Assembly: GCA_963764695.1 (NCBI GenBank)
Contig: CAVXTW010000015.1
Coordinates: forward strand, 477,845-509,682
Reading direction: 5' to 3'
Source: an uncultured delta proteobacterium
GTDB taxonomy: Bacteria; Myxococcota_A; Polyangia; Haliangiales; Haliangiaceae
Length of the DNA stretch: 31,838 nt
Part shown: positions 123 to 22,324 of the stretch, one piece after another
Position numbering within the stretch: position 1 is the stretch's first letter
How the letters are laid out: each line of letters begins with the position of its first letter
Made by a program: the position numbers and the translations under genes
The notes under the pieces: generated by a model
The model's input: only the letters and a program-made list of their open reading frames with translations
What the model was told of the DNA's origin: nothing
The model's database searches: none

Positions 123-887
123 CTACTCTTTCCGGGGATTGCCGGCGAGCAGCCGGCTACCCGGGTTGCCATCGGGGAACGTCACCTCGGCCGCGCTCGG
201 CCGGATGTAAACGGGAGTACCCGTCCGGGCCACGTTAACGCGCGATCCGGCGAGCGCAAGTCGCGCGACCGAGCGGGCCGTCGGCGTGATGCGCGCGCGA
301 GCGAGTGGCTCGGCGGCGCCGGCCAGGGCTGCACCATGAGACTCGAGCGCGTCGCCGATCAGCACCGCGCGCGAAAGCTGCGCCTCGCGCAGGAGCTCGG
401 CCACCACTGCGGCGAGCTCCGCCGGAACCATGATACGCTCCGCCCCCATCGCGTCGACGCGGTCGCCCTCGACGCGGAAGAAGCCGGCGCAGACCTCGCC
501 GCGGCGGGCATCGAAGGCCGGCACGACCAGCGTGTCGGCCAGCGGTTCGACGGCCGCGGCGTCCAGCGCCAGCGCCGCGAGCGAGGACACCGACCACAGC
601 GGCAGCCCGGTGGCGAAGCACAGCCCCTTGGCGGTGGCCATGCCGATGCGCAGGCCGGTGAAGGAGCCGGGGCCGGCGCCGATCGCGACCGCGGCCAGCT
701 GGGCGAGCTCCACGCCGGCCTCGCCGAGCACGCCGTCGATCAGGGCGATCAGGTCGTCGCTGCGGCTCTCGGCGCGCCCCTCGGCGGAGAGATCCACGCC
801 GGGCCCCAGGAGCGCAACGCTTGCGACCCGGGTCGATGTGTCGATGGCGAGGACCGGAGACACCCCGGGTGTACCGCTCCAATCCAT
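123..887 (-). CDS. tsaB: tRNA threonylcarbamoyladenosine biosynthesis protein TsaB (YeaZ)
   Basis: 254-aa ORF with the YeaZ/TsaB hallmarks AIDTST...SVAL and GPGSFTGLRIG...AKGL; divergent from the next gene. Confidence 0.85.
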   Translation of the reverse strand: MDWSGTPGVSPVLAIDTSTRVASVALLGPGVDLSAEGRAESRSDDLIALIDGVLGEAGVELAQLAAVAIGAGPGSFTGLRIGMATAKGLCFATGLPLWSVSSLAALALDAAAVEPLADTLVVPAFDARRGEVCAGFFRVEGDRVDAMGAERIMVPAELAAVVAELLREAQLSRAVLIGDALESHGAALAGAAEPLARARITPTARSVARLALAGSRVNVARTGTPVYIRPSAAEVTFPDGNPGSRLLAGNPRKE

Positions 888-961
888 GCTGTAGCGCCTC
901 CTACCACGTCTGGTACGCTGGTGAAAGACCCGTGGCCCTGAGCTCGGACGTCAAGAAGGGG

Positions 962-2740
962 ATGAAGCCGGAGGAGCTGGAAGAGCTACTCAACGGCCTC
1001 GAGAAGCTGCTGGAGCGCACGAAGGTGCTCTACGAGCAGTACTTCATGGGCATCCAGAAGATGGCCCCGCTGCAGCTGCACCGCGACGTCGAGCGCAAGG
1101 TGCGCGAGCTGATGCAGCAGCAGATCCGCAACACGGCGCTGCGGTTCCGGTTCACGACGATCAGCCAGAAGTTCGGGTCGTACTCGACCTACTGGAAGCG
1201 GACGCTGCGCGAGATCGAGCAGGGCAAGTACGTGCGCGACCTGGCCCGGGTCAAGCGCAAGGCCGACCAGATGGGCGAGGAGCTGCCCGAGGAGCTGCTG
1301 GTCAAGCTGCCCAAGCTGGTCCAGGACCGGATCCGGCGCGATCGCGAGCGCATGGCCGAGCGCGCGATGCGCGACGCCGAGCACGAGATCCGGGCGCGGG
1401 GCACGTCTGCCGGCGACAGCGGCGCCGACGACAGCCTGGCGCTGCACGAGATCAGCGACGTCGAGGCGCAGAGCCTGTTCAACGAGGGCGACCTGGACCT
1501 GGACAAGGTGTTCGAGGCGCTGACCGAGGCGCCGGCGCCCGAGGGGACGCCGGTTCCGGGCGCGACCCGGGCGGTGCCGGCCGCGGACGAGTCGGATGCC
1601 CGGCGCTCGGTCGACTTGCTGGAGCCGGATACGGAGACGCTGGAGCCGGACGGCGGCGGGGCGCCGGCGATGGATTCGTGGGCGGAGTCGCCGGAGCCGG
1701 ACGAATCGCCGGAGCCGGCCGTGGAGCCGCCGACGCCGGCAGAGTCGATGGTGGCCCAGGGCAAGGGACGCGCGGCCCGCGCCAGGGGTCGAACCGTGAC
1801 GTCGCCGATGGGCAAGGCGATCGCGGCGAGCCGGCCGTCAACCTCGGACGCATCGGATGCGTCGGACGGGTCGGATGCCCAGCCGGTCGCGCCGGTCGCG
1901 GACCCGCCGGTCGCGGACCCGCCGGTCGCGAACCCGCCGGTTGCGGCTCCCCCGGTCGCGGTCCGGTCAACCCCGCCGGTGTTCCGGGTCCCGCTGCCGC
2001 CGGGGGCAAGCCCGCGGCCGAGCGCGACCCCGCCGGAGCCTCCGGCTGCGGTGCCTCTGCCTCCCGTGCTGCCGCGCACCGCGACCGGGCCCCAGACCGC
2101 GCCCGCGCCCGTGCCGCCGCGGACCATGACCGGCCAGACGCCGCCCGTGTCGCCGGGCCCGCCCCCGCCCGTGCCGCCGCGGACCATGACCGGCCAGACG
2201 CCGCCCGTGTCGCCTGGCCCGGCCCCGCCCGTGCCACCGCGGACCATGACCGGCCAGACGCCGCCCGTGCCGCCGCGGACCGTGACCGGCCAGCAGACGC
2301 CGCGCGCCGCCACCGGACAGCCGACGCCGCGGGCCGCGACCGGCCAGCCAGTCCCACCGCGGACCGTGACCGGGCAGCAGACCCCGCCACCCCGCGCCGC
2401 CACCCCGCCGCCTCCGCCACGTGGCGCGACTCCGCCGCCTCCGCCTCGGGCTGCGACCGCGCGCCGGGCCGAGCCGCCTGCGCACCCGGCGCCCGACCTG
2501 CCGCCCGGCATGGACGACCGCGAGTGCCGCGAGCTCTATGCGCGCTACCTCAAGGCGCGCCAGCTTGTCGGCGAGAGCAACGACGACGTGACCTACGAGC
2601 GCCTGGTGAGCTCGCTCAGCAAGCAGGCCAGCGCGATCATGAACCAGCACAGCGCGCGGGGCGTCCAGTTCCACGTCGTGGTGCGCGGCGACAAGGTCGT
2701 GCTCAAGGCCAAGCCGCTCAAGCCGGGCAAGGACGAGTAG
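962..2740 (+). CDS. Pro-rich repeat protein with conserved N- and C-terminal domains (hypothetical)
   Basis: ATG at 962 preceded by AAGGGG. The listed ORF start at 821 adds an unlikely 47-aa leader. The charged helical N-domain (MKPEELEELLNGLEKLL...) and a globular C-domain (ECRELYARYLKARQL...) flank about 300 aa of PPVPPRTMTGQTPPVSPGP-type repeats. Confidence 0.6.
   Translation: MKPEELEELLNGLEKLLERTKVLYEQYFMGIQKMAPLQLHRDVERKVRELMQQQIRNTALRFRFTTISQKFGSYSTYWKRTLREIEQGKYVRDLARVKRKADQMGEELPEELLVKLPKLVQDRIRRDRERMAERAMRDAEHEIRARGTSAGDSGADDSLALHEISDVEAQSLFNEGDLDLDKVFEALTEAPAPEGTPVPGATRAVPAADESDARRSVDLLEPDTETLEPDGGGAPAMDSWAESPEPDESPEPAVEPPTPAESMVAQGKGRAARARGRTVTSPMGKAIAASRPSTSDASDASDGSDAQPVAPVADPPVADPPVANPPVAAPPVAVRSTPPVFRVPLPPGASPRPSATPPEPPAAVPLPPVLPRTATGPQTAPAPVPPRTMTGQTPPVSPGPPPPVPPRTMTGQTPPVSPGPAPPVPPRTMTGQTPPVPPRTVTGQQTPRAATGQPTPRAATGQPVPPRTVTGQQTPPPRAATPPPPPRGATPPPPPRAATARRAEPPAHPAPDLPPGMDDRECRELYARYLKARQLVGESNDDVTYERLVSSLSKQASAIMNQHSARGVQFHVVVRGDKVVLKAKPLKPGKDE
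1895..1965 (+). repeat. 15-bp tandem repeats (gccggtcgcggaccc) encoding PVADP x ~4
   Basis: Direct read of near-identical 15-mers within the CDS. Confidence 0.6.
2101..2290 (+). repeat. 60-bp tandem repeat, ~2.7 copies, in-frame (PPVPPRTMTGQTPPVSPGPA)
   Basis: Rows 2101-2160, 2161-2220 and 2221-2265 are nearly identical at exact 60-nt period; degenerate 'accggccag' repeats continue to ~2400. Confidence 0.8.
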
Positions 2741-4113: not shown

Positions 4114-7100
4114 CTAGTGGGGCTGGGCGCTGCTGCCACTGTCGGCGAAGCGCGTCCGGCCGGTGTGATTCCACCAGTCGAGCCAGCGCTGCCGGGCCTG
4201 CTCGCGCTCGCGGCGCGGCAGATCGTGGTGGTAGCCGAAGTACTCGCCGGTCGCCTTGCGCAGGTCCTCGGCGGCGGAGCGGCGGATCTCGGTGTCCTTG
4301 TGGGCCAGGCCTTCGAGCAGCCACTCGATGCGGTTGCGGGTCCGGTTCTTGTCCCACCAGTGGCGCCACTTGCGATTGCTCGGGCCGAAGTCCTGCTTGG
4401 TCAGGCGCACCAGCGCGCGGCCCGCGATTGTCGCCGCCTCGCCGCCGCCGGCGTGGAGGTCGAGCAGGTCCGGGATCGCGCTGATGTCGGCCAGCTCGCC
4501 CAGCGCGGTCGCCGCGCACTCGATGGTGGTGAGATCGTCGCCGTGCAGCGCGCGTCGCGCGACAGCCAGCGCCGCGGCCAGGTGGGGCTGCGGATACGAC
4601 GCCAGCGCCTCGATCGCGATCGCCCGGGTGCCGCGGTCGGGGTCGAACAGCCGCTCGACCAGCGGCGGCAAGAGCGCCTCGAGCCGCATCTCCGACGCGC
4701 ACAGCGCGGCGTAGTAGCGGACGTCGTTGCCGCTGTCGCGCAGCTTCTCGCTCACCACGTCGGCCGCCGGCGCGCCCATCCGCACCGCGAGCTCGAGCAG
4801 GTGGCCGTGCTGGGCCGCGCGCACGTGGCGGCCGCCGATCTGCCGGCGGTCGAGGATGAGCCGGCCGGGGAAGTGGCGCCGCAGCCACGGCAGCACGTCG
4901 GCCGGCCGGGTGAGTGCCTCCTCCATCGCGCCGGCCGCCGCGGCGTCGTTGGCGCCGTCGACCGCGACCATCAGCGCCTCGACCTCGGGCGGGATCGGAA
5001 TGTCGGCCGCCGCGCTGCCGCTCGCCACCCGCGACTCGCCGGGCCGCGGGATCTCGCCCAGCAGGGTCGGCATCACGTCCGGCGAGACCGCCGCCATGCG
5101 CACTGTCGCGCGGTCGTCGACGCGCTCGGGCGCCTCCGCATCCGCGCGCTGGTCGACCGGCGCGTCCGCGGGCGGCGTCGCGGCCGGCATCTGCCTGCTC
5201 TGCGACATCGCCTTGCCGCGCATGATGATGCGGCCGAGCGCCTCGCTGGCGGTGGCGGCCAGCGGCAGGATCTCCGACGCCTCCGCCACCATCAGCATGT
5301 CGCCGCCGCGATGGCCGATGACCAGCGCCACCACCCGGTTGCGCAGCACCACCGGCAGCAGCAGCGCGCTCGGCGGGATCACGCCGCCCAGCCGCCGGAT
5401 CATCGCGTCGATGTCCTTGTCGCCGGTGGTGACCGGGCCGATGTAGGGCGACGCCGTGTTCACCGCCTGGCGGAACGCCGACGCGGTGTCGAGCGGGATG
5501 AGCACCTGGGCGATGTTGCTCTGCTCCACCTCGTCGCCGGCGATGGCCACGCGGCCGATGGCGGCCCCGCCCTGCACGGTCAAGAGGCCGACGTACCAGG
5601 TGCGCGCGCGGATGGCGCGCAAGAGGATCTGGAAGACCTCGTCGCGATGCTCGGCCGCTCCCAGCATCGCGCGCGCCTCGCTCACGCTGAGCGGCGTCGG
5701 GTCGAAGCCGCCCATGCGGCGGACCGACTGCGTGGTCGCGCCCGAGTCGCCCGCCATCGGCCCGGTCGGCGCCGACGGCAGCGGGGCGACCGGCGGGCCG
5801 CTTGCCTCGTCCTGCGGCCCGATCTCGCCGCTGACCGCGCTCGGACCGCGGCCGTCGTCGAACCGCGCCATCGGCGCGGTGACCGCCAGCCCGCCCGAGT
5901 CGGGGCCGTCGTACTCGATCACCACCTCGGCGGAGCTGCCGGACAGCACCTCGGGCGCGTCGCCCGCCGACCCGTCCGGCACCGTGTCCTCCGGCACCAG
6001 CGGCAGCGGCTCGTCGGTGGTGTGTCGCCTGTATGCCTCGGCCGCCTTCTGATCGACCTCGATCTGTCGCTGGCGCACCGCCTCCGGCGTCATGTCGCGC
6101 GTGCGCCGCCCGCTCGGATGCAGCGGCTGCGCGTCGGCCAGCGCCAGTGCCGCCGGCGTGGGCGCCGTGATGGCCCCGGACGCGTCGAAGGGCGCCGTCA
6201 CCTGTGCCTCGAGCGCCGCCTCGGCCGCGTTCATCGCGACCTGCGGCATGTTCGCCGCGACCGGGGCCGCAGCCGACGCGTCGGCAGCAGCCGCGGCCTC
6301 GGCAGCAGCCGCATCCGCCGCCGCCGCCGCAGCGGCCTCGGCAGCCGCCGCGTCCTCAGCAGCCTGGGCGTCGGCAGCGGCCTGGGCCTGCGCGTTCGCC
6401 CACGCTGCCTCCTGGGCCTCCACAGCAGCCCGCGCCTCGGCAGCCGCCCGGGCCTCTTCTGCAGCCTGCGCCTCCGCAGCCCGCGCCTCTTCCGCAGCCC
6501 GCGCCCCTTCCGCAGCCCGCGCCCCTTCCGCAGCCCGCGCCCCTTCCGCAGCCCGCGCCCCTTCCGCAGCCCGCGCCCCTTCCGCCGCCCGCGCCTCGGC
6601 AGCCGCCCGCGCATCTTCCGCAGCCCCGGCAGCAGTCCGCGCCCCGGCAGGAGCCCTGCCCCCGGCAACCTCAGCGTCCGCAGCCGCCTGCGCAGCGATC
6701 GCGGCCGCGCCCGGCCTGGTCTCCGCCGCCGACGGCGCAGCGGCCCAGCGCGCGGCCGCCGCATCGGCGCCCGGCCTGGTCGCCTCGTCGGTCGGCGCCG
6801 AGGCCGCACGCGCCTCCACATCAGCGACCACCACACCGGGCGACGTGTCCACCCCGGCCAGCGCTGCAGCGAGCGCGCCCGGCCTGGTCTCCTCCGGCGC
6901 CGGCGCCGAGGCGATGCGGGTCGGGGCCGACGCCACCGCCACGGCCGGGTCGAGCCTGGTCGGCTCGGCGGCCGGCGGCTGGGCGAGCGTGCCCACCACC
7001 ACCGACGGCGAGCCGCCGACCGGCGGGATCATCGACGGACGCGACGCCTCGGCCAGGCGCATGAACCGATCGTCGCTGGCCCGCCCGTACACGCGGTCGA

Positions 7101-7530
7101 AGGCCAGCTCGAAGCGAAACTCCGGCGCCACGAACGGCTGCACCGGCGCGCCCAGCTCGCTGGCCAGGTCCTCGAGCAGCCCGAGGTCAACCGGATCGCG
7201 CGCCAGCACCCGCATGGCGTCGCCGTCGAACGACAGCGGCACGACGCGGAAACGCTCGGCCAGCGCGCGCGGACATCGGCTGGCCGCGCGCGGCTCCATC
7301 CCGTCCAGCTCGCGCGCCGTCGCCGGCGGCAGCCCGGTCGCCAGCGACAGGTACTGCAGGAGCCGCTGCTCGGGCAGAAGGTTCATCTCGAGCAGGATGG
7401 TGTCGAGCGCGCCATCGAACAGCACCTGGCGCTGGAACGCCCGCTCCATCCGCCGCACGTCGACCACACCGTCGCGGACCAGCAGCGAGCTCAGGCGCGA
7501 TGTCCCACTCGTCTGGCTCGTCTCGCTCAT
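4114..7530 (-). CDS. multidomain protein: N-terminal MshEN/GspE-N (T2SSE_N) c-di-GMP-binding-type domain, Ala/Glu-rich low-complexity repeats, GAF-like middle region, C-terminal PBS-lyase HEAT repeats
   Basis: 1138-aa uninterrupted ORF. The N-terminal RLSSLLVRDGVVDVRRMERAFQRQ fits the 24-residue MshEN motif RLGxx(L/V/I)(L/V/I)xxG(L/V/I)(L/V/I)xxxx(L/V/I)xxxLxxQ. The central region has (EARAAEGARAA)n and three ETRPGA repeats. The C-terminus has HEAT-like D.D..VR..A..ALG repeats. Confidence 0.75.
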   Translation of the reverse strand: MSETSQTSGTSRLSSLLVRDGVVDVRRMERAFQRQVLFDGALDTILLEMNLLPEQRLLQYLSLATGLPPATARELDGMEPRAASRCPRALAERFRVVPLSFDGDAMRVLARDPVDLGLLEDLASELGAPVQPFVAPEFRFELAFDRVYGRASDDRFMRLAEASRPSMIPPVGGSPSVVVGTLAQPPAAEPTRLDPAVAVASAPTRIASAPAPEETRPGALAAALAGVDTSPGVVVADVEARAASAPTDEATRPGADAAAARWAAAPSAAETRPGAAAIAAQAAADAEVAGGRAPAGARTAAGAAEDARAAAEARAAEGARAAEGARAAEGARAAEGARAAEGARAAEEARAAEAQAAEEARAAAEARAAVEAQEAAWANAQAQAAADAQAAEDAAAAEAAAAAAADAAAAEAAAAADASAAAPVAANMPQVAMNAAEAALEAQVTAPFDASGAITAPTPAALALADAQPLHPSGRRTRDMTPEAVRQRQIEVDQKAAEAYRRHTTDEPLPLVPEDTVPDGSAGDAPEVLSGSSAEVVIEYDGPDSGGLAVTAPMARFDDGRGPSAVSGEIGPQDEASGPPVAPLPSAPTGPMAGDSGATTQSVRRMGGFDPTPLSVSEARAMLGAAEHRDEVFQILLRAIRARTWYVGLLTVQGGAAIGRVAIAGDEVEQSNIAQVLIPLDTASAFRQAVNTASPYIGPVTTGDKDIDAMIRRLGGVIPPSALLLPVVLRNRVVALVIGHRGGDMLMVAEASEILPLAATASEALGRIIMRGKAMSQSRQMPAATPPADAPVDQRADAEAPERVDDRATVRMAAVSPDVMPTLLGEIPRPGESRVASGSAAADIPIPPEVEALMVAVDGANDAAAAGAMEEALTRPADVLPWLRRHFPGRLILDRRQIGGRHVRAAQHGHLLELAVRMGAPAADVVSEKLRDSGNDVRYYAALCASEMRLEALLPPLVERLFDPDRGTRAIAIEALASYPQPHLAAALAVARRALHGDDLTTIECAATALGELADISAIPDLLDLHAGGGEAATIAGRALVRLTKQDFGPSNRKWRHWWDKNRTRNRIEWLLEGLAHKDTEIRRSAAEDLRKATGEYFGYHHDLPRREREQARQRWLDWWNHTGRTRFADSGSSAQPH
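6478..6590 (-). repeat. 18-bp tandem repeat x ~6 (plus-strand unit gcccgcgccccttccgca) encoding AEGARA repeats
   Basis: Direct read; near-perfect copies at 18-nt period inside the giant CDS. Confidence 0.75.
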
Positions 7531-7567: not shown

Positions 7568-8248
7568 TCATGACTCGGCCACGACCACGTAGGTCCCGGC
7601 CAGCCAGTCGTGCAGCGCCCGCTTCTCGCTGTCGAACCCGATCCAGAAGAAGCCCAGCCCCAACGTGACGAGGCTGGCCAGATAGGCGGCGGTGCGCGCC
7701 GCGGTGCGCGGGATCGACGGTGAATCGCCGAACAGATCGATGACGCGCACGCGCAGGACGCGCATGCCGAGCGTGCGTCCGGTGGTGGCCTGGAACAGAA
7801 ACAGATAGATGAGGGCGATGGCGAGCGCCAGCCCGATGCCGCCGACCAGCGCCGGCTCGCCGGCCAGAAACATGTCCAGCCAGAAATCCAGCCCGCGGAA
7901 GTTCGACGGCGGCAGCCGGATGCCGGTGATGACCGCAGCCAGCCAGGTGAGAAGCAGCATCACCGGCGCCAGCACGCCCAGATCGATGAGCGCGGCGGCC
8001 AGCCGTCGCCAGAACCCGGCCACATAGAAGGTGGGTGCCGCCGTGCGACCGCCGCGCGGCACCGGCTGACGCGGCCCCGGATGCGGCGGGTGACCCTGCT
8101 GATGCCCGTGCTGATGCGACGGATCCCAGCCCGGCTGGTGGGCGCTATTGCGCACGCGACCATCCGGGTCGCGGCGCCCCCCTGGGCCCACCGCTCGTTC
8201 CCCCGGATCCGCGCCCAGTATTGCCGGTTGCCGCACGGACATTGTCAT
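7568..8248 (-). CDS. RDD family membrane protein
   Basis: Start taken at MTMSVRQP (ATG 8248) rather than the listed 8431. The RDD-domain pattern RRLAAALIDL...GRTLGMRVLRVRVID...KRALHDWLAGTYVV and TM helices are present. Confidence 0.75.
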   Translation of the reverse strand: MTMSVRQPAILGADPGERAVGPGGRRDPDGRVRNSAHQPGWDPSHQHGHQQGHPPHPGPRQPVPRGGRTAAPTFYVAGFWRRLAAALIDLGVLAPVMLLLTWLAAVITGIRLPPSNFRGLDFWLDMFLAGEPALVGGIGLALAIALIYLFLFQATTGRTLGMRVLRVRVIDLFGDSPSIPRTAARTAAYLASLVTLGLGFFWIGFDSEKRALHDWLAGTYVVVAES

Positions 8249-8276: not shown

Positions 8277-9035
8277 TCAAATCTCGCCGAGGACGTACGC
8301 GAGGATCGCGGCTCCCGCAACTGCTGCCGTGTCGGCGCGCAAGATCCGGGCACCCAGTCCCACTGCCGCGAACCCGGCAGCGGTCGCCGCCTCGACCTCG
8401 CCGGCGGACAGACCGCCCTCGGGTCCCACAAGCACCGCGACCGTGGCCGGCGGCCGCTCGGGCAGGGCCGATCGCAGCGGAACTGCCTTCGCCTCCTCCC
8501 AGAAGACCAGTTTCAGCTCCGCGTCCGCCGTCCGCGCAAGTGCCTGGTCGAGGCTGCAGATCGGGTCGACCACCGGCACCTGCATGGCCCGACATTGCTG
8601 GACCGCCGCCCTCACCTGGACGCGGAAGCGCTCGCGCCGCTTCTCGGCCCGCTCCCCGTCCAGCCGCACCACCGACCGCTCGGCGGTCAGCGGCACGATG
8701 CGCCCCACCCCGAGCTCGACGAGCTTGGTGAGACAGTAGTCCATCCGCTCACCCTTGATGAGCGACAGGATGACGGTGAGCCGCGCGGCCGTGCGCGGCG
8801 AGGCGACCGCGGTGCGCGCCCCCACGTCCAGGGCCGCGCTGCGCGAGCCGACGCTCTTGACCTCCGCCTCGGCCTCGCACCCTTCTCCGTCGAACAAGAG
8901 CAGCCTGTCACCCGGGCGCATGCGGCGCACGTGAAACAGGTAGTGGTAGTCCTCGCCGCGCACGCTGCGCTCGCCGGGCACCAGCTCCGACGGTGGGATC
9001 AGGACCCGGAGCAGCTGAGCAGCACCGCGCTCCAC
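8277..9035 (-). CDS. rsmE: 16S rRNA (uracil1498-N3)-methyltransferase RsmE
   Basis: Family hallmarks HYLFHVRRMRPGDRLLLFDGEG, LIKGERMDY, VGPEGGLS. The listed start overlaps prmA by 37 nt, so the true start may be internal. Confidence 0.8.
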   Translation of the reverse strand: MERGAAQLLRVLIPPSELVPGERSVRGEDYHYLFHVRRMRPGDRLLLFDGEGCEAEAEVKSVGSRSAALDVGARTAVASPRTAARLTVILSLIKGERMDYCLTKLVELGVGRIVPLTAERSVVRLDGERAEKRRERFRVQVRAAVQQCRAMQVPVVDPICSLDQALARTADAELKLVFWEEAKAVPLRSALPERPPATVAVLVGPEGGLSAGEVEAATAAGFAAVGLGARILRADTAAVAGAAILAYVLGEI

Positions 9036-9787
9036 GCCGTGTCCTCCTCGTCCCGGCGCAGCTCTTCCAGCGCCATCCCGTGCCCGCGATATCGATCGGC
9101 GACAGGCTCAGCCTGCTCCGACAACAGGCCGCTCAGCGCCAGCCATCCGCCCGGCGCCACGCGCTCGCACAGCGGCGCCGCCAGCTCGGCCAGGACGTCG
9201 GCCTGGATGTTGGCCAGCGCGAGGTCGAACGGGCCGCGCAGCTCGCGCAGGTCCGCGTTCGAGGTCTGGATGCGCGCGGCCCGGTTGGCGGCGATGTTCT
9301 CGGCCGCCACCGCGACCGCGGCGGCGTCGTTGTCGACCGCCAGCACCTCGGCCTGCGGCCACAGCACCGCCGCGCCCAGGGCCAGGATCCCGGACCCGGT
9401 CCCCAGATCGAGCACGCGCGCCGGGCGCACGCCGCGATCGGCGAGGTCCTGCAGGATGCGCAGGACCAGCCGGGTCAACGCATGGGCCCCGGTGCCGAAG
9501 GCCTGGCCCGGATCGAGGTGCACCACCCGATCGTCGGGCCCCGGCTGGTGGCTGTCCCAGCTGGGCACCACCACGATCTGCCGCGTGAGCCGTACCGTCC
9601 GGAAGTAGCGCTTCCACGCGTCGCGCCACTCCGCTTCGGGCGCCGCCTGGCGCGAACTGACCCCGGCCGGGTCCAGCGGCTGCCCGGTCGCGGCCAGCGA
9701 GGCGGCCGCCGTGCGCGCGGCCTGCTCGGCCTCGGGGGCGCGCTCGGCCGGCACCCAGAAGACGACCTCCCGGGCCCGCACCTCCAC
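8999..9787 (-). CDS. prmA: ribosomal protein L11 methyltransferase PrmA
   Basis: DPGQAFGTGAHALTRL and DLGTGSGILAL SAM motifs. PrmA-like N-terminal sequence (LTDWVEISIPV) continues in-frame upstream to ~9901 with no ATG/GTG/TTG, so the true start may be CTG at 9901 or the start was lost. Confidence 0.8.
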   Translation of the reverse strand: MEVRAREVVFWVPAERAPEAEQAARTAAASLAATGQPLDPAGVSSRQAAPEAEWRDAWKRYFRTVRLTRQIVVVPSWDSHQPGPDDRVVHLDPGQAFGTGAHALTRLVLRILQDLADRGVRPARVLDLGTGSGILALGAAVLWPQAEVLAVDNDAAAVAVAAENIAANRAARIQTSNADLRELRGPFDLALANIQADVLAELAAPLCERVAPGGWLALSGLLSEQAEPVADRYRGHGMALEELRRDEEDTAWSAVLLSCSGS

Positions 9788-9985: not shown

Positions 9986-10201
<216 letters not shown>

Positions 10202-10285
10202 AGAGCCATCGTGGGTACACGAATACTCAACCAGAATCAAGTGTATGGCCGCGAAGTGAATTCAATATAGGTGTAAATATCCCCC

Positions 10286-10314
10286 TTGACTAGAATGTTT
10301 ACGGCGGATAGTGT
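10286..10314 (+). promoter_or_regulatory. sigma70-like promoter: TTGACT (10286-10291), 17-nt spacer, TAGTGT (10309-10314)
   Basis: Read directly in the AT-richer rpsU/small-ORF divergent intergenic region; downstream is AGGAGGG (10384-10390) followed by GTG 10394. Confidence 0.45.
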
Positions 10315-10393
10315 TCGTGTTCAGTTTCCGCCGGCGGGGCACTACAGCAGGCAGGTTGTGCGTCAACTGCTGCTTCCTACTAGGAGGGTGAGA

Positions 10394-10606
10394 GTGGCAA
10401 ACGTCACTGGGGTCAAGGTCTTCTCGGCAACCAAGGCCAAGGAGAGAGAGGGACTCGGCGAAGCGATCACCGAATGGCTGCGCGGAAATCCCAACATGGA
10501 GATCGTGGACAAGATCGTCACCCAGTCCTCGGACTCCGAGTTCCACTGCCTCACCATCACGTTCTTCTATCGGGCTCGCGATCGCTCTTCTTCCGCCGCC
10601 GCGTGA
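10394..10606 (+). CDS. small hypothetical protein (70 aa)
   Basis: GTG start 5 nt after a strong AGGAGGG Shine-Dalgarno. Product VANVTGVKVFSATKAKEREGLGEAITEWLRGNPNMEIVDKIVTQSSDSEFHCLTITFFY has mixed composition. The listed ORF 10286-10606 includes an implausible leader. Confidence 0.5.
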   Translation: MANVTGVKVFSATKAKEREGLGEAITEWLRGNPNMEIVDKIVTQSSDSEFHCLTITFFYRARDRSSSAAA

Positions 10607-10662
10607 AATCGTTTACCGCGCCCCCGAGTTGACGGGCTCTGTATCCGCGATACCTTGCGCGG

Positions 10663-12039
10663 ATGAGCGCACGAGCCCTGCGGCCGGCGGCGTTCGCGAT
10701 CGCCTGTGTCGTCGTGGTTGCCGGTGCGCGTTCGGCGCGCGCGCAGGCACCGGCACGACCGCCGGCGACAAGCGATGCGAACCCGCTGCCCACCATCCAT
10801 GAGTGGAAGCTCAAGAACGGACTGACCGTCGCCCACGTCGAGCGGTCCGGCCTGCCGATGGTCACGGTGCAGGTCTGGTATCGCTTCGGCTCCAGAGACG
10901 AGCCCGCCGGGCAGCACGGAGCCGCGCGCGCCTTCGAGCGCCTGATGTTCCTCGGCTCCGAGCACGTGCGAAGTGAGGACCACCGCCACTTCGTCGAGCA
11001 AGCCGGCGGCGACACCACCGCGCTGGTGACCGAGGATGTGACCGCGTTCCACGACGCGGTCCCGGTCGAGCACTTCGAGAAGGCGCTCGAGCTCGAGGCC
11101 GATCGCATGCGGCGCCTCCTGGTCCGCAACGAGGCGCTCGATGCGATCCGGCCGACCATGATCGAGGAGGTTCGGCGGCAGGAGTCGAGCCCTGTCTTCC
11201 ACGCGTACCAGCGGCTCTTGTCGACCGCGTTCGGCAACCACTCGTACGGGTGGGCGCCGCTCGGCTCGCGCGAGGACATCGCGAAGCTGAGCGGACAACA
11301 TATGAAGGCGCTCTACGACCGCTACTTCGTGCCGGGCAACGCGCTCGTGATCGTCGTCGGCGGCGTGCCGGCCAACGTCGCCGCCACCGCGGTGGAGCGC
11401 TGGTTCGGGCCGCTTCCGGCGACAAACGCGCCGGCCCGCACCGACGACACGCCGCCTGCCGTGGCGGCCAAGGAACCGCACCGCGAGCAGATGCAGGGCA
11501 GCCCGATCGGGCTGGTCATGGCGGGGCACCGCCTGCCGCCCGCGGTCGACGAGGACGTGCTGGCGCTGCAGCTGGCCGGCACCATCCTGACCACCGGCAC
11601 GTCGTCGCGCCTGCACCGCCGGCTGGTCGGCGGAAAGCTGGCCGACGAGATCGGCGGCCAGGTGCTGGTGCGCCGCGACGGCGGCGTGCTGGTCGCGTTC
11701 GCGCGGTTCTCGGGCGGCGCGCTGGCCCCGGTCGAGAAGGCGCTGATGAGCGAGATCGATCGACTGTCAACGCAGGCTCCCGGCGCGGCCGAGCTGCGGC
11801 GCGCCAAGGGGCAGATCCTGGGCGCGGCCTGGTTCGGCATGGAGAACGCGACCGGGCTGGCCAACCAGATCGGCGTGTCGTGGGGGCTGACCGGCAAGCC
11901 AGGGGCCTTCCTGACCGATCTGCTCGCGCTCGACAAGGTCACCGCCGCCCAGGTGCGGCGCGCGGCCGCAAAGTACCTGGCCCGCAACCAGCGGGTGATC
12001 ATCGCGGCCGAGCCGCAGCCGGCGGGAGGTGTGCGATGA
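10663..12039 (+). CDS. M16 (pitrilysin/insulinase) family peptidase homolog, secreted; HxxEH zinc motif apparently degenerate (RAFER)
   Basis: Signal peptide, then GSRDEPAGQHGAARAFERLMFLGSEH aligning to the M16 GSRxE...AHFLEHMLFKGT block; M16_C-like second half. Stop TGA overlaps the next ATG (ATGA). Confidence 0.8.
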   Translation: MSARALRPAAFAIACVVVVAGARSARAQAPARPPATSDANPLPTIHEWKLKNGLTVAHVERSGLPMVTVQVWYRFGSRDEPAGQHGAARAFERLMFLGSEHVRSEDHRHFVEQAGGDTTALVTEDVTAFHDAVPVEHFEKALELEADRMRRLLVRNEALDAIRPTMIEEVRRQESSPVFHAYQRLLSTAFGNHSYGWAPLGSREDIAKLSGQHMKALYDRYFVPGNALVIVVGGVPANVAATAVERWFGPLPATNAPARTDDTPPAVAAKEPHREQMQGSPIGLVMAGHRLPPAVDEDVLALQLAGTILTTGTSSRLHRRLVGGKLADEIGGQVLVRRDGGVLVAFARFSGGALAPVEKALMSEIDRLSTQAPGAAELRRAKGQILGAAWFGMENATGLANQIGVSWGLTGKPGAFLTDLLALDKVTAAQVRRAAAKYLARNQRVIIAAEPQPAGGVR

Positions 12040-15659: not shown

Positions 15660-16430
15660 TCAGCGCTCGTCGGCGATCTCGACGTGCACGCCCTGCTCGC
15701 GGCAGATGTCGCGCAGCCGCGGCGCCAGCGGCGAGTCGGTGACGAAGTAATCGAGCTGCGAGATGTGGCCGATGCGGACCGGCGCGGTGCGCTCGAGCTT
15801 CATGCTGTCGGCCACCAGGATCGACTTGCGCGCGCACTCCATGATCGCACGCGCCACCTTGACCTCGCGGTAGTCGAAGTCGAGCAGCGTGCCGTCCTCG
15901 TCGATCGCCGACGCGCCGATGACCGCGTAGTCGACCTTGAACTGCCGGATGAAGTTGACCGTCGCCTCACCGACGATGCCGCCGTCCGACTGCCGCACCA
16001 CGCCGCCGGCCACGATGATCTCGATCTCCTCGCAGCCCTGCAGGATGTTGACCACGTGGATGTTGTTCGTGATGGTCAGCAGGCCGCGCTTGCCGCGCAG
16101 GGCCATCGCGACCTGCTCGGTCGTGGTGCCGATGTTGATGAGCAGAGACGAGCTGTCCGGAATCAGCGACGCGGCCACCGTCCCGATGCGCCGCTTGCCG
16201 TCCGTCGCCAGCTTGCGCCGCGCCTCGTAACCGACGTTCGCGATCCCGGAGGCCAGGATCGCGCCGCCGTGAAAGCGCTGCAGGACGCCGCGCTCGCACA
16301 GGTGGTTCAGGTCGCGCCGGATGGTCTGCGGCGTGACGTGGAAGCGGCTGGTCAACGTCTCGACCTTCACCCGGCCTTCCGACCGTGCGAGCGCGACGAT
16401 GTGTGCCTGCCGCGGGTTCAGTCGCTCCAT
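15660..16430 (-). CDS. DeoR/GlpR family transcriptional repressor
   Basis: N-terminal HTH (RQAHIVALARSEGRVKVETLTSRFHVTPQTIRRDLNHL) plus DeoR C-terminal sugar-phosphate-binding fold (VVAGGVVRQ..., IGASAIDEDG). Confidence 0.85.
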   Translation of the reverse strand: MERLNPRQAHIVALARSEGRVKVETLTSRFHVTPQTIRRDLNHLCERGVLQRFHGGAILASGIANVGYEARRKLATDGKRRIGTVAASLIPDSSSLLINIGTTTEQVAMALRGKRGLLTITNNIHVVNILQGCEEIEIIVAGGVVRQSDGGIVGEATVNFIRQFKVDYAVIGASAIDEDGTLLDFDYREVKVARAIMECARKSILVADSMKLERTAPVRIGHISQLDYFVTDSPLAPRLRDICREQGVHVEIADER

Positions 16431-16471
16431 GAAAGCGCGAAAAACGCTAGCAAGGAGCGCGGTCGCGCAGC

Positions 16472-16537
16472 AAACGAAAACGAAGTTTCGTCAATCGGGC
16501 GCAAATGTTTCCGTTTGACTTTCGTTTATTTTCGAAC
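16472..16537. promoter_or_regulatory. cluster of CGAA/TTCG half-sites (AACGAAAACGAAgtTTCGT ... TTTCGTTTATTTTCGAAC): putative GlpR-type operator array
   Basis: Inverted repeat ACGAA-GT-TTCGT (16480-16491), direct AACGAA x2, TTCGT (16521-16525) and palindromic TTCGAA (16531-16536) in the AT-richer divergent intergenic region. Confidence 0.5.
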
Positions 16538-16544
16538 TTAGGCT
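16515..16544 (+). promoter_or_regulatory. candidate promoter for the ABC operon: TTGACT (16515-16520), 18-nt spacer, TAGGCT (16539-16544)
   Basis: Read directly; the spacer is occupied by the TTCG repeats, consistent with repressor occlusion. Confidence 0.35.
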
Positions 16545-16670
16545 TGGGCCGCTGTCTCGAGGAGTTGTTTGCAGTTTCCTCGCAGTGGGTTGGTAGGGAC
16601 CCGATCTGTCCTGGACCCAGCGAAAGACTGGAGCGATGTCTCGATAGCTCCGGGGGAGGATGACCATCCA

Positions 16671-18491
16671 ATGAGGATCCGACTGATGGCGGTGATTGCC
16701 GCCGCGGCGTTGGCTTCGTGCGAGAGCCCGAAATCCGAAAAAGCGGAGAAGAGCGCCGGCGGCTCGGGCGCCACCGGCGGCGGCGCGCCCGCGGCCGGCG
16801 GCAGCATGGAGGCGGCCAAGAAGTGGGTCGACAGCGAGTTCCAGCCGTCGACGCTGTCCAAGGAAGACCAGCTCAAGGAGATGGAGTGGTTCGTCAACGC
16901 CGCCGCGCCTTTCCGGGGCATGGAGGTCAACGTGCTGTCGGAGACCATCCCGACGCACGAGTACGAGTCCAAGACGCTCACCAAGGCGTTCCAGGAGATC
17001 ACCGGCATCAAGGTGAATCACCAGCTGCTTGGTGAGGGCGAGGTCGTGCAGGCGGTGCAGACGCAGATGCAGACCAACCGCAACCTGTACGACGCGTACA
17101 TCAACGACTCCGACCTGATCGGCACGCACTCGCGCCTGCAGTCGGCCGTCAACCTCACCGACTGGATGGCCGGCGAGGGCAAGGACGTCACGCTGCCGAC
17201 CCTCGACGTCGACGACTTCATCGGCAAGTCGTTCACCACCGGCCCCGACGGCAAGCTCTACCAGCTGCCCGACCAGCAGTTCGCGAACCTCTACTGGTTC
17301 CGCTACGACTGGTTCAAGAAGCCGGAGCTGCAGAAGCAGTTCAAGGACAAGTACGGCTACGACCTCGGCGTGCCGGTCAACTGGTCGGCCTACGAGGACA
17401 TCGCCGAGTTCTTCAGCGTGCACGTCAAGAACATCGACGGCGTGCGCATCTACGGCCACATGGACTACGGCAAGCGCGCCCCCGACCTGGGCTGGCGCAT
17501 GACCGACGCGTGGCTCTCCATGGCCGGCGCCGGCACCAAGGGCGTCCCCAACGGCCGTCCCATCGACGAGTGGGGCATCCGCATGGAGGAGGGCTCGTGC
17601 AACCCGGTCGGCGCGTCCGTCGCCCGCGGCGGCGAGACAAACGGCCCGGCCTCGGTCTACGCCATCCGCAAGTGGGACGAGTGGCTCCGCAAGTACGCCC
17701 CCCCGGGCGCGGCCGACTACGACTTCTATCAGTCGCTGCCGGCGCTGTCGAAGGGCAACGTGGCCCAGCAGATCTTCTGGTACACCGCCTTCACCTCGAC
17801 GATGGTCGCGCCCAAGAGCGAGGGCAACAACACGGTCGACGACGAGGGCAAGCCGCTCTGGCGCATGGCGCCGTCGCCGCACGGCCCGTACTGGATCGAG
17901 GGGATGAAGCTCGGCTATCAGGACGCCGGCTCGTGGACTCTCTTCAAGTCGACGCCGGTCGATCGCCGCAAGGCCGCCTGGCTCTACGCGCAGTTCGTGG
18001 TGTCCAAGACCACGTCGCTCAAGAAGAGCCACGTCGGCCTGACGATCATCCGCGACAGCGACATCCGCCACCAGTCGTTCACCGACCGCTCGCCGAAGCT
18101 GGGCGGCCTGGTCGAGTTCTACCGCTCGCCGGACCGCGTCAACTGGAGCCCGACCGGCGTCAACGTGCCTGACTATCCCAAGCTGGCGCAGCTCTGGTGG
18201 CAGAACATCGGCGACGTGAACTCGGGTGCGTTCACCCCGCAGCAAGCCATGGACCGTCTGGCCCAGGAGATGGACCAGGTCATGGCGCGCATGCAGGAAG
18301 CCGACGAGAAGGCCAAGGTCTACGGCGGCTGCGGCCCGCGCCTGGCGGCCCCCAAGGACCCGAAGGACTGGCTCGGCAAGCCGGACGGCCCCAAGGCCAA
18401 GCTCGCCAACGAGAAGCCGAAGGGCGAGACGGTGGACTACGACGAGCTGGTCAAGCGCTGGCAGGTTGAAGAGAAGAAGCCCCCGGGCTAG
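16671..18491 (+). CDS. ABC transporter substrate-binding lipoprotein (carbohydrate/polyol family)
   Basis: GGGGGAGGA upstream. Lipobox LASC. Long periplasmic-binding-protein-like sequence with a Lys/Pro-rich C-terminal tail. Confidence 0.8.
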   Translation: MRIRLMAVIAAAALASCESPKSEKAEKSAGGSGATGGGAPAAGGSMEAAKKWVDSEFQPSTLSKEDQLKEMEWFVNAAAPFRGMEVNVLSETIPTHEYESKTLTKAFQEITGIKVNHQLLGEGEVVQAVQTQMQTNRNLYDAYINDSDLIGTHSRLQSAVNLTDWMAGEGKDVTLPTLDVDDFIGKSFTTGPDGKLYQLPDQQFANLYWFRYDWFKKPELQKQFKDKYGYDLGVPVNWSAYEDIAEFFSVHVKNIDGVRIYGHMDYGKRAPDLGWRMTDAWLSMAGAGTKGVPNGRPIDEWGIRMEEGSCNPVGASVARGGETNGPASVYAIRKWDEWLRKYAPPGAADYDFYQSLPALSKGNVAQQIFWYTAFTSTMVAPKSEGNNTVDDEGKPLWRMAPSPHGPYWIEGMKLGYQDAGSWTLFKSTPVDRRKAAWLYAQFVVSKTTSLKKSHVGLTIIRDSDIRHQSFTDRSPKLGGLVEFYRSPDRVNWSPTGVNVPDYPKLAQLWWQNIGDVNSGAFTPQQAMDRLAQEMDQVMARMQEADEKAKVYGGCGPRLAAPKDPKDWLGKPDGPKAKLANEKPKGETVDYDELVKRWQVEEKKPPG

Positions 18492-18502
18492 ACCATCTCG
18501 CA

Positions 18503-19558
18503 GTGACGCTCGAGCTGAGAAGTGTGGTCAAGCGCGTCGGCGCCGAGACCCACATCTACGAGACCAGCGTGGTGTTCGCCGAGGAGGGTTTCAACATCCT
18601 CCTCGGCACCACGCTGTCCGGCAAGACCACGCTGATGCAGCTCATGGCCGGGCTCGAGAAGCCGAGCTCGGGTGAGGTCTGGTTCCGCGGAAAGAACGTG
18701 ACCGGCGTGGCCGTGCAGAAGCGCAACGCCGCCATGGTCTACCAGCAGTTCATCAACTACCCGAACTTCTCGGTGTTCGACAACATCGCGTCGCCGCTGC
18801 GGGTCGCGGGGCTGAAGTCGGCCGAGATCAAGACGCGGGTCCACAAGGTGGCGGAGCTCTTGCGGCTCACGCCGATGCTGAAGCGGCGGCCGGCCGAGCT
18901 GTCGGGCGGGCAGCAGCAGCGCACCGCGCTGGCCCGCGCGCTGGTCAAGGACGCCGACCTGGTCCTGCTCGACGAGCCGCTGGCCAACCTGGATTTCAAG
19001 CTGCGCGAGGAGCTGCGCGACGAGCTGCCCGCGCTGTTCACCAACCGGCGCTGCACGGTCGTGCTGGCCACGTCCGATCCGACCGAGGCGCTGCTGCTGG
19101 GCGGCCACACCGCGGCGCTGCACGAGGGCAACGTCACCCAGTTCGGGCCGACCGCCGAGATCTACCGCAAGCCGGCCAATGTCCTGACCGCGCGCGTCTT
19201 CTCCAACCCGCCCATCAACATGGCGCCGGTGGCGGTCGAGAACGGCAGCGTGGTGCTGAGCGACACCGTGAAGTGGCCGGTCCGCGGCGTCACGCTGGCC
19301 GACGGCAGCTACACCGTCGGCATCCGCCCGCACCACATCAGCCCGATCGCCAACGGCAAGGCCGCGGCGCAGATCGAGGGGCGTGTGCAGATCGCCGAGA
19401 TCAGCGGCTCCGAGAGCGTCATCCACTTCGAGCACGGCGAGCTCAGCTGGGTGTCGCAGTCGCACGGCGTGCACGCCATCGCCGTGGGCGAGACGGCCAA
19501 CTTCTTCATCGACGTCGAGCGCTGCATGTTCTTCGACGGCGACGGAAAGCTGATCTGA
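18503..19558 (+). CDS. ABC transporter ATP-binding protein (MalK/UgpC-like with C-terminal TOBE-like domain)
   Basis: Walker A GTTLSGKTT, Q-loop, signature LSGGQQQR, Walker B LVLLDEPL. Stop overlaps the next start (TGATG). Confidence 0.85.
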   Translation: MTLELRSVVKRVGAETHIYETSVVFAEEGFNILLGTTLSGKTTLMQLMAGLEKPSSGEVWFRGKNVTGVAVQKRNAAMVYQQFINYPNFSVFDNIASPLRVAGLKSAEIKTRVHKVAELLRLTPMLKRRPAELSGGQQQRTALARALVKDADLVLLDEPLANLDFKLREELRDELPALFTNRRCTVVLATSDPTEALLLGGHTAALHEGNVTQFGPTAEIYRKPANVLTARVFSNPPINMAPVAVENGSVVLSDTVKWPVRGVTLADGSYTVGIRPHHISPIANGKAAAQIEGRVQIAEISGSESVIHFEHGELSWVSQSHGVHAIAVGETANFFIDVERCMFFDGDGKLI

Positions 19559-20644
19559 TGGCCCGCATCACGCTCCAGAAGGTGCGGCACAGCTATCACG
19601 CGAAGCCGAAAGACCCGGCCGACTGGGCGCTCAAGGAGCTCGATCTCGAGTGGCGCGACGGCGGCGCGTACGCCCTGCTCGGCCCGTCCGGCTGCGGCAA
19701 GACGACGCTGCTCAACATCATCTCGGGGCTGGTGCGGCCGACCGAGGGGCGGGTGCTGTTCGACGGCGCCGACCTGACCGACGTGCCCACCGACCGGCGC
19801 CACATCGCGCAGGTGTTCCAGTTCCCGGTCGTCTACGACACGATGACCGTGCGCGACAACCTGGCCTTTCCGCTGCGCAACCGCGGCCTGCCCGAGGCGG
19901 ACATCCAGGCCAAGGTGGAGGAGATCGCGCGCATGCTCGATCTCGAGCCGCATGCTGGGCCGGCGCGCCTCGGGGCTGACGGCCGACGGCAAGCAGAAGA
20001 TCTCGCTCGGCCGCGGGCTGGTCCGCTCCGACGTCAACGTCATCATGCTCGACGAGCCGCTGACGGTCATCGACCCGCACCTCAAGTCGCAGCTGCGCTC
20101 CAAGCTGCGCGAGCTGCACCAGCGCATCACGCGCACGATGATCTTCGTGACCCACGACCAGACCGAGGCGCTGACCTTCGCCGACCAGGTGGTGGTCATG
20201 CACGACGGCACCGTGGTGCAGATCGGGTCGCCGGTCGAGCTGTTCGAGAAGCCGCAGCACACCTTCGTGGGTCACTTCATCGGCTCGCCGGGCATGAACG
20301 TGCTGCCGTGCGAGCTCAACGGTGACTCGGCGCTGCTGGCCGGGACCAAGGTCCGCGTGGACAACCCGCCGGCCGGGCCGCTCGACGGCAAGCGCCTCGA
20401 GATCGGCGTGCGCCCGGAGTTCGTGAAGCTGGCGAAGGAGGGCATCCCGGTCCGCATCGTGCGGGTGAGCGATGCCGGCCGCCACCGCATCGTCAACGCG
20501 CGCCACGGCGAGATCGGCATCAAGCTGCTCGTCGACGACGGCGTGCCGGTGCCGAGCGAGGTGGCCCACGTGCAGTTCGACCAGGCGCACACGCGCCTGT
20601 ACGCCGACGGCTGGCTGGTGGAGAAGGACGCCGACCGGGGCTGA
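19558..20644 (+). CDS. second ABC ATP-binding protein (MalK-like) with degenerate signature motif; reading frame broken near 19951-19957
   Basis: N-terminal half in frame 1 (Walker A GPSGCGKTT ... LDLEPH); C-terminal half in frame 2 (GRRASGLTADGKQKISLGRGLV, Walker B VIMLDEPL, H-loop VTHD, TOBE-like tail). Joining them needs one nucleotide removed. The signature reads LTADGKQK instead of LSGGQRQR. Confidence 0.7.
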
Positions 20645-20656
20645 CCGAGGTCAGAG

Positions 20657-22324
<1,668 letters not shown>

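Follow-up and report, generated by a model that had tools for sequence, protein, structure and literature searches.

A probable Kofleriaceae ortholog of FrgA combines a variant MshEN domain with GAF and HEAT modules and is encoded next to an RDD membrane protein

The locus described here raises the question of what an MshEN domain does in a protein that is not a secretion ATPase. It lies in a stretch of 31,838 nucleotides (the window; all positions refer to it) from an uncultured delta proteobacterium of the Haliangiaceae (GenBank assembly GCA_963764695.1, contig CAVXTW010000015.1, positions 477,845 to 509,682 of the forward strand), in which a large open reading frame (ORF) encodes a protein with an N-terminal MshEN domain, a long Ala-rich linker, a GAF-fold domain and C-terminal HEAT repeats, in this order. 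An earlier note on this DNA had suggested a scaffold or adaptor responsive to cyclic di-GMP (c-di-GMP). The data presented here indicate that the gene is probably the FrgA ortholog of the Kofleriaceae, encoding a cytoplasmic and non-enzymatic adaptor for signalling in gliding myxobacteria, and that its MshEN domain carries a conserved variant of the c-di-GMP motif. The coordinates of all features are listed in Table 1.

The ORF is a real gene: the GC content at its third codon positions (GC3) is 0.92, as expected of genuine genes in a window of about 72% GC. An exact-sequence look-up of the protein returned no record. In an alignment with 44 homologs, conservation is concentrated in three blocks, residues 1-175, about 606-776 and about 848-1130. 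A secretion ATPase can be rejected, because the T2SSE domain is absent from the Pfam scan of the protein and because the TIGR02538 PilB model aligns only over its first ~140 positions, with 27.5 bits at a cut-off of 675. There is also no catalytic domain among the modules. The earlier note had separated the N-domain from any secretion ATPase and had proposed a scaffold or adaptor; the first point is borne out, and a non-enzymatic scaffold or adaptor is supported, as the protein has an MshEN, a GAF and a HEAT module only.

This combination of modules has been catalogued before: Wang et al. (2016) give an architecture 'MshEN - UNK - HEAT' in their Supplementary Table 4, with Myxococcus xanthus FrgA (MXAN_1130, ABF88426) as the exemplar. 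When the full protein was used as the query of a first homolog search, low-complexity words dominated and the matches numbered 45 only. The 70-aa N-terminus of FrgA from the supplement of Wang et al. (2016), which may contain errors of optical character recognition, was used as bait and returned two fragments, and the FrgA-like N-terminal fragment P0137 was compared exhaustively with 1.8 billion representatives by phmmer, which returned 151 proteins. According to hidden Markov models (HMMs) of the single modules, 34 of these 151 representatives carry all three Kofleriaceae modules in the same order. One of them, P0142 (MBJ6761242.1), is annotated as 'FrgA protein [Myxococcaceae bacterium JPH2]', shares 73% identity with the N-terminus of M. 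xanthus FrgA as published and is recognised by the module HMMs with E-values of 1e-15 (N-domain), 5e-16 (GAF) and 4e-46 (C-terminal module). BLASTP aligns the window protein to P0142 over 516 residues of the GAF and HEAT modules (28% identity, E = 9e-39) and over 150 residues of the N-domain (32% identity, E = 2e-14). The homology of three modules, together with the conserved position of the gene described below, identifies the window protein as a FrgA ortholog, and the earlier remark that it was not recognised as a characterised protein does not stand: the architecture is catalogued for FrgA, and the window protein is its positional three-module ortholog.

In M. xanthus, from which all the genetic evidence comes, frgA mutants resemble frz (reversal) mutants and the genetics implicate the protein in developmental aggregation and motility reversal; FrgA is also enriched in MglA proximity labelling. 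FrgB (MXAN_1129) and FrgC (MXAN_1128) form a cognate two-component system that affects motility. Three sources (PMC5013675, PMC3892784 and a 2026 bioRxiv preprint) agree that frgA is MXAN_1130 and adjoins frgB and frgC. A table of 2007 (PMC2129111) lists FrgA as MXAN_3225, 'polysaccharide export'; this entry conflicts with the three other sources, was not adopted, and is probably a locus-tag error.

Beyond the Myxococcaceae, too, FrgA orthologs are widespread. A family profile built without the linker retrieved at least 561 family proteins, and relatives were present in at least 105 genomes, mostly of Kofleriaceae/Haliangiales, in a scan that took a single genome for each GTDB species. Gene neighbourhoods were counted at 80 loci (L001-L080) that are labelled as Kofleriaceae, Haliangiales or generic myxobacterial metagenome-assembled genomes. 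In the window, four genes follow each other on the minus strand in the order prmA, rsmE, RDD, frgA-like gene; prmA and rsmE overlap by 37 nt, and the gaps between rsmE and the RDD gene and between the RDD gene and the frgA-like gene are 28 nt and 37 nt. This is an operon-like cluster. The rsmE-like gene is syntenic in 48 of the 80 loci and also in the FrgA locus of Myxococcaceae bacterium JPH2 (L081), which consists of PrmA, three inserted genes, RsmE, a small gene, RDD, FrgA, a histidine kinase and an NtrC-type regulator, the last two corresponding to M. xanthus FrgB and FrgC. The only terminator candidate in the cluster (7677-7654) falls within the coding sequence of the RDD gene and does not exceed chance (1.2 expected); the search found no terminator that is convincing. 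The single sigma70-like promoter match near the cluster is weak evidence for a promoter. It is located in a region of low GC content (0.62 at 10001-11000, in comparison to 0.72-0.76 in the flanking sequence), namely the intergenic stretch that separates prmA from the divergently oriented gene of an M16 peptidase (10663-12039).

The RDD gene is an almost obligate upstream partner of the frgA-like gene in Kofleriaceae loci and is found in most FrgA lineages sampled: it lies directly upstream and on the same strand in 77 of the 80 loci, and the three remaining contigs stop at or just before the 5' end of the frgA-like gene. The same adjacency is present in L081 and in two other FrgA-type lineages (L083, L084). 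The RDD protein has an N-terminal tail of about 75 residues, rich in Pro, Gly and His, followed by three hydrophobic segments. The tail is variable across orthologs with the exception of a peptide at its tip, [DEQ]P.[ILVFM]L[GKR] (RQPAILG in the window); a loose form of this peptide is present in 55 of 75 orthologs, and the strict form was found 32 times, with 0.1 expected in shuffled tails. The tail is predicted to be disordered, and the tip peptide looks like a short linear docking motif. In the literature we found one characterised RDD protein only, the Na+(Li+,K+)/H+ antiporter of a Halobacillus.

As the window protein is orthologous to FrgA, the 'UNK' domain of FrgA has a GAF fold: residues 606-776 form an antiparallel sheet flanked by helices. 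The GAF-like region of the earlier note is thus confirmed, even though Pfam GAF models gave no match to the window protein at E <= 10 and a search of PDB sequences with residues 603-780 gave no match either. The best GAF match is the GAF domain of a chemoreceptor, and sequence identity is 7-17% for all matches. Compared with the GAF domains of a chemoreceptor (3OOV), of PtsP (3TRC) and of DevS (GAF-B, 2VKS), to which it is 8-17% identical in sequence, the domain is set apart by its lack of a Pfam match and of ligand signatures: it has no Cys and neither an NK dipeptide nor an NKFDE-type motif for cyclic nucleoside monophosphates. The C-terminal HEAT repeats, also proposed earlier, are confirmed as an alpha-solenoid of paired helices with similarity to HEAT_2-type repeats. 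The match to a HEAT repeat in the Pfam scan is below threshold, and the best matches are generic: residues 923-1043 align to designed alphaRep HEAT proteins (phmmer against PDB sequences, E = 1.6e-7). Within the solenoid there are two segments of the type 'T(K/G)x(D/Y)FG...W..WW', and the final ~60 residues are the most conserved stretch of the whole protein.

The N-terminal module is an MshEN domain. Residues 79-151 match Pfam PF05157 with 48.7 bits (gathering score 23.1, E = 7.6e-13), and phmmer aligns residues 7-152 to the N-domains of PilF, PilB and MshE among PDB sequences (E 4e-17 to 4e-9). Both subdomains are predicted to be present and alignable to solved structures, the four-helix MshEN_N part at about residues 12-64 and the T2SSE_N1-like part at about 79-151. 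The profile searches gave no unrelated fold, and the assignment of the N-terminus to the GspE/MshE type (T2SSE_N) in the earlier note is correct. The c-di-GMP motif, which that note had regarded as a match to the published one, needs a more careful description. Wang et al. (2016) defined two tandem 24-residue motifs with a 5-residue joint, RLGxx(L/V/I)(L/V/I)xxG(L/V/I)(L/V/I)xxxxLxxxLxxQ, and a relaxed pattern, [RKPN]hGxxhhxx[GAS]hhxxxxhxxxhxx[QNKRYWST], in which the Gly at position 3 is still required. The window protein has retained the two-segment layout, with the spacer VLFDG (36-40) between motif 1 and motif 2, as well as Arg12, Gln35 and both hydrophobic triads (L13/L57/L61 and L42/M28/F32); the first motif starts at residue 12 and not at residue 11, as the coordinates 11-34 of the earlier note had implied. 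What did not hold is the match itself: the strict and the relaxed pattern both have 0 matches in the window protein and in the homologs of the first search. Motif 1 fails at Gly3, which is a Ser, and motif 2 fails at positions 1, 3, 10 and 24. As judged from its sequence, the window protein does not have the canonical c-di-GMP motif.

The deviations are conserved across the family. Position 3 of motif 1 is Ser in 133 of 133 family sequences and position 3 of motif 2 is Asp in 134 of 134; position 1 of motif 2 is an Arg or Lys in none of 134, and position 24 is Ala in 130 of 134. Also invariant in the family are, in motif 1, Arg1 (Arg12), Leu2 (Leu13), Gly10 (Gly21) and Gln24 (Gln35) and, in motif 2, the Leu positions. 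A small residue other than Gly at position 3 of motif 1 and an acidic residue at position 3 of motif 2 are found throughout the FrgA superfamily, which has the motif-2 signature GGx[LVI][DE][TS]xLLE. The invariance of the deviations suggests a conserved, retuned use of the MshEN_N surface and not decay, and points to a pocket that is a conserved variant rather than a decayed c-di-GMP site.

Could the domain still be a functional c-di-GMP receptor, with the GAF/HEAT output following the c-di-GMP level? Some deviation is tolerated in PilF of Thermus: GSPII-B binds c-di-GMP at 6 nM without an Arg at position 1 of either motif, and GSPII-C binds at about 460 nM with a Glu at position 3 of motif 2. 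The window protein has the MshEN fold with the canonical layout, the triads and the four invariant residues of motif 1, and its first 65 residues rank among the most conserved of the protein in the alignment with homologs. What has been replaced, however, are both Gly residues that contact guanine through their backbone, and Arg1 and Gln24 of motif 2 are gone; in MshE of V. cholerae (VcMshE), binding of c-di-GMP is undetectable in the G11L mutant, 72-fold weaker in G40I and 12-fold weaker in Q61A. The segment that scores best within the top PDB match of the window protein is PilF GSPII-A of Thermus thermophilus (PDB 6F8L residues 5-145), which pairs a good motif with a degenerate one and shows no binding of c-di-GMP, and FrgA was itself predicted to be a non-binder by Wang et al. 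(2016). With the NCBIfam model NF053729 ('c-di-GMP_motif', cut-off 38 bits), the window protein scores 20.5 bits at full length and 23.7 bits for the N-domain, and its relatives score 19.6-32.6 bits; the controls reach 56-65 bits for proven or canonical binders and 52.4 bits for the non-binder GSPII-A. Since the model passes a non-binder, a score above the cut-off is not sufficient for binding and the model was used only to gauge the distance from the consensus. The term 'c-di-GMP-responsive' of the earlier note is unsupported at these scores, which are even lower than that of GSPII-A. High-affinity canonical binding of c-di-GMP by the window protein is, from these motif data, unlikely, and a receptor function that drives the GAF/HEAT output is about equally doubtful.

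The same conserved replacements could be read as specificity for another ligand, perhaps a cyclic dinucleotide that contains adenine, such as 3',3'-cyclic GMP-AMP (3',3'-cGAMP) or c-di-AMP, with the Ser and Asp side chains reading the Hoogsteen edge of the purine differently. Ser and Asp are invariant in 134 sequences and an acidic residue at position 3 of motif 2 is found superfamily-wide, which argues for selection rather than decay; the stacking triads are retained, and an Asp carboxylate, unlike a backbone amide, could act as acceptor when the N6 amino group of adenine donates a hydrogen bond. According to PMC8844925, Myxococcus makes 3',3'-cGAMP besides c-di-GMP. A protein-protein interface would show an equal conservation pattern, though, and GSPII-C, with Glu at the same position, binds c-di-GMP. 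To our knowledge there is no MshEN domain with adenine-dinucleotide specificity, and as the idea is purely inferential we regard it as very unlikely. A GAF domain together with HEAT repeats of the CpcE/F type could finally indicate the handling of bilins or tetrapyrroles, by a phytochrome-like sensor or a lyase-like protein. The GAF domain is devoid of any Cys, and covalent attachment of a bilin is therefore impossible; NCBIfam lyase models score 11-19 bits at cut-offs of 220-330; the best GAF match is of the chemoreceptor type, at the low identities given above, and the best HEAT matches are the generic designed alphaRep proteins; and the window protein lacks PAS and PHY modules as well as a kinase or any other domain for output. 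A role in bilin handling can hardly be entertained after this, and a bilin-binding or phytochrome-like identity was rejected on the missing Cys and the low lyase scores.

The reading that we prefer is that of a FrgA ortholog acting as an adaptor. The soluble protein would dock to the RDD membrane protein, with either the T2SSE_N1-like subdomain or the HEAT surface of FrgA as candidate contacts and the conserved tip peptide of the tail as their counterpart in RDD. For the subdomain there is an analogy in the type II secretion system, where the N1 domain of GspE binds the membrane protein GspL. Ligand or partner inputs could be supplied by the GAF domain, as a sensor or for dimerisation, and by the remodelled MshEN_N pocket, and the HEAT solenoid may recruit downstream regulators of motility and polarity. 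Such an adaptor fits the M. xanthus genetics, given the frz-like phenotype of frgA mutants and the proximity labelling of FrgA by MglA.

Several observations weigh against this reading. A physical interaction between RDD and FrgA is inferred solely from the adjacency of the genes, and one Sandaracinaceae genome has PrmA-RsmE-FrgA without an RDD neighbour. No FrgB- or FrgC-like genes adjoin the frgA-like gene, neither in the window nor at any of the 80 loci; linkage to frgBC is rejected for these loci, and because the pair is absent there, the downstream wiring may differ in Kofleriaceae. The downstream frgBC pair is a feature of the Myxococcaceae lineage and stands outside the definition of the protein family. 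The source organism, represented by metagenome bins alone, is only assumed to be motile. The sequence alone also leaves some room for c-di-GMP binding, because GSPII-C binds with a Glu at the equivalent position of motif 2: of the 11 key positions, the two motifs of the window protein have 8+7, which in this crude count falls between the binder GSPII-C (8+8) and the non-binder GSPII-A (10+6). No biochemical function was found for any FrgA-family protein in the literature searched, which consisted of papers later than the original one on FrgA (Cho et al. 2000).

The linker between the MshEN and GAF modules is presumably disordered; it is about 430 residues long and, judged by block conservation and occupancy, not conserved in the family. 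The earlier note had described it as a spacer of Ala/Glu repeats and ETRPGA copies, which is right in kind, but the repeat unit is a hexapeptide and the spacer has about 430 residues instead of ~250. The array of EGARAA units has five perfect copies, or about 11-14 when degenerate ones are counted. The closest relative, L001, is 84% identical overall; it also has ETRPGA, and at the place of the array it has (ADARAA)n with fewer copies. This difference between the two proteins means that the array evolves quickly, and the two sets of repeats indicate that the units would be homogenised inside each array while the copy number changes. A basic segment of the linker, RRTRDMTPEAVRQRQIEVDQKAAEAYRRH (residues 474-503; 6022-6111, minus strand), followed by EVVIEYDGPDSG, is kept only in about 7 of the closest relatives and may be a clade-specific linear motif.

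Table 1. Position of the frgA-like gene, its modules and motifs, and the neighbouring features in the window
Feature	Position	Strand	Basis
FrgA-family protein, complete ORF, 1138 codons	4114..7530	minus	ORF list, GC3, homologs, BLASTP to FrgA
MshEN domain, residues 1-175	7006..7530	minus	Pfam PF05157, phmmer to PilF/PilB/MshE N-domains
Variant motif 1, residues 12-35 (RLSSLLVRDGVVDVRRMERAFQRQ)	7426..7497	minus	8 of 11 strict key positions
Degenerate motif 2, residues 41-64 (ALDTILLEMNLLPEQRLLQYLSLA)	7339..7410	minus	7 of 11 strict key positions
Low-complexity linker, residues 176-605, 35% Ala	5716..7005	minus	Conservation and occupancy per block, composition
Three dispersed ETRPGA copies, within residues 213-276	6703..6894	minus	Regular expression, positions 215, 251, 271
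18-bp tandem array encoding (EGARAA)n	6423..6667	minus	Tandem Repeats Finder
GAF-fold domain, residues 606-776 ('UNK' domain of FrgA)	5203..5715	minus	
HEAT/ARM alpha-solenoid, residues 848-1130	4141..4989	minus	
RDD-family membrane protein, 226 aa from ATG at 8248	7568..8248	minus	Pfam PF06271, E = 9.3e-22
rsmE-like 16S rRNA methyltransferase	8277..9035	minus	Pfam Methyltrans_RNA and PUA_4, synteny
prmA-like L11 methyltransferase, at the head of the packed cluster	8999..9787	minus	Pfam PrmA, E = 4.3e-53, synteny
Sigma70-like promoter match upstream of prmA	10264..10292	minus	1 site, 0.1 expected from shuffles

Elsewhere in the window, an ORF of 639 aa (821-2740, plus strand) has no Pfam match. 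It consists of a helical N-terminal part and a Pro-rich region with tandem repeats, namely a 15-bp unit present 4.8 times at 1890-1961 (PVADP) and a 60-bp unit present 2.9 times at 2100-2275 (20 aa, PPVPPRTMTGQTPPVSPGPA). Its 5' end overlaps a tsaB-like ORF on the opposite strand (123-887), so the true start is probably farther downstream; a syntenic copy is present in 11 related loci. At 15660-21527, the gene of a DeoR-type regulator (15660-16430, minus strand) adjoins an ABC-type sugar-uptake cluster with a solute-binding protein, a MalK-like ATPase, an ORF with the OB domain of MalK only, and a permease. The split into two MalK-like ORFs (18503-19558 and 19952-20644) may be caused by a mis-called start or a frameshift. 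No tRNA and no Rfam family was found in the window.

The gene frgA has been known genetically since 2000 as a frz-related gene of aggregation and motility, and both these genetics and the MshEN-UNK-HEAT architecture were known before this study. New are the assignment of the 'UNK' domain of FrgA to the GAF fold, the near-constant pairing with RDD and the conserved variant of the MshEN pocket. FrgA orthologs occur in at least 105 species of Kofleriaceae/Haliangiales, with no adjoining frgBC at the 80 loci examined. The inference of c-di-GMP binding should be kept out of the annotation. Were the pocket specific for adenine dinucleotides, for which we see only a slim chance, FrgA and RDD would be an unrecognised second-messenger input to the control of motility and polarity in myxobacteria.

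How does the window protein compare with known systems? With the MshEN proteins that bind c-di-GMP, namely VcMshE (PDB 5HTL), the PilB proteins of Geobacter and Myxococcus, and the Thermus PilF domains GSPII-B and GSPII-C, it has in common the PF05157 family, the two segments spaced by five residues, the Leu-type stacking positions and Arg1 and Gln24 of motif 1. It differs from them in having no fusion to a T2SSE ATPase, in the replacement of both Gly3 residues, in the lack of Arg1 and Gln24 in motif 2 and in a sub-threshold NF053729 score. PilF GSPII-A is similar in that a better motif 1 is followed by a degenerate motif 2, which begins with GG-x-L-x and lacks Arg1, Gly3 and Gln24; unlike the window protein, GSPII-A has kept the Gly at position 3 of motif 1, belongs to a pilus ATPase and has Ile at two positions of motif 2 that are both Leu in the window protein. 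The differences to FrgA itself (P0142) are the identity of only 28-32%, an Ala-rich linker that is far longer and holds a tandem array of hexapeptides, the absence of a frgBC kinase/regulator pair downstream, and an N-domain that is nearer to the c-di-GMP consensus: NF053729 scores 12 bits for P0142, in comparison to ~20-33 for the Kofleriaceae N-domains. In other respects the two are alike: MshEN domain, linker, middle domain and HEAT repeats are collinear and all modules are significantly similar, both proteins have a small residue other than Gly at position 3 of motif 1 and an acidic one at position 3 of motif 2, and in JPH2, as in the window, PrmA, RsmE and RDD are encoded upstream.

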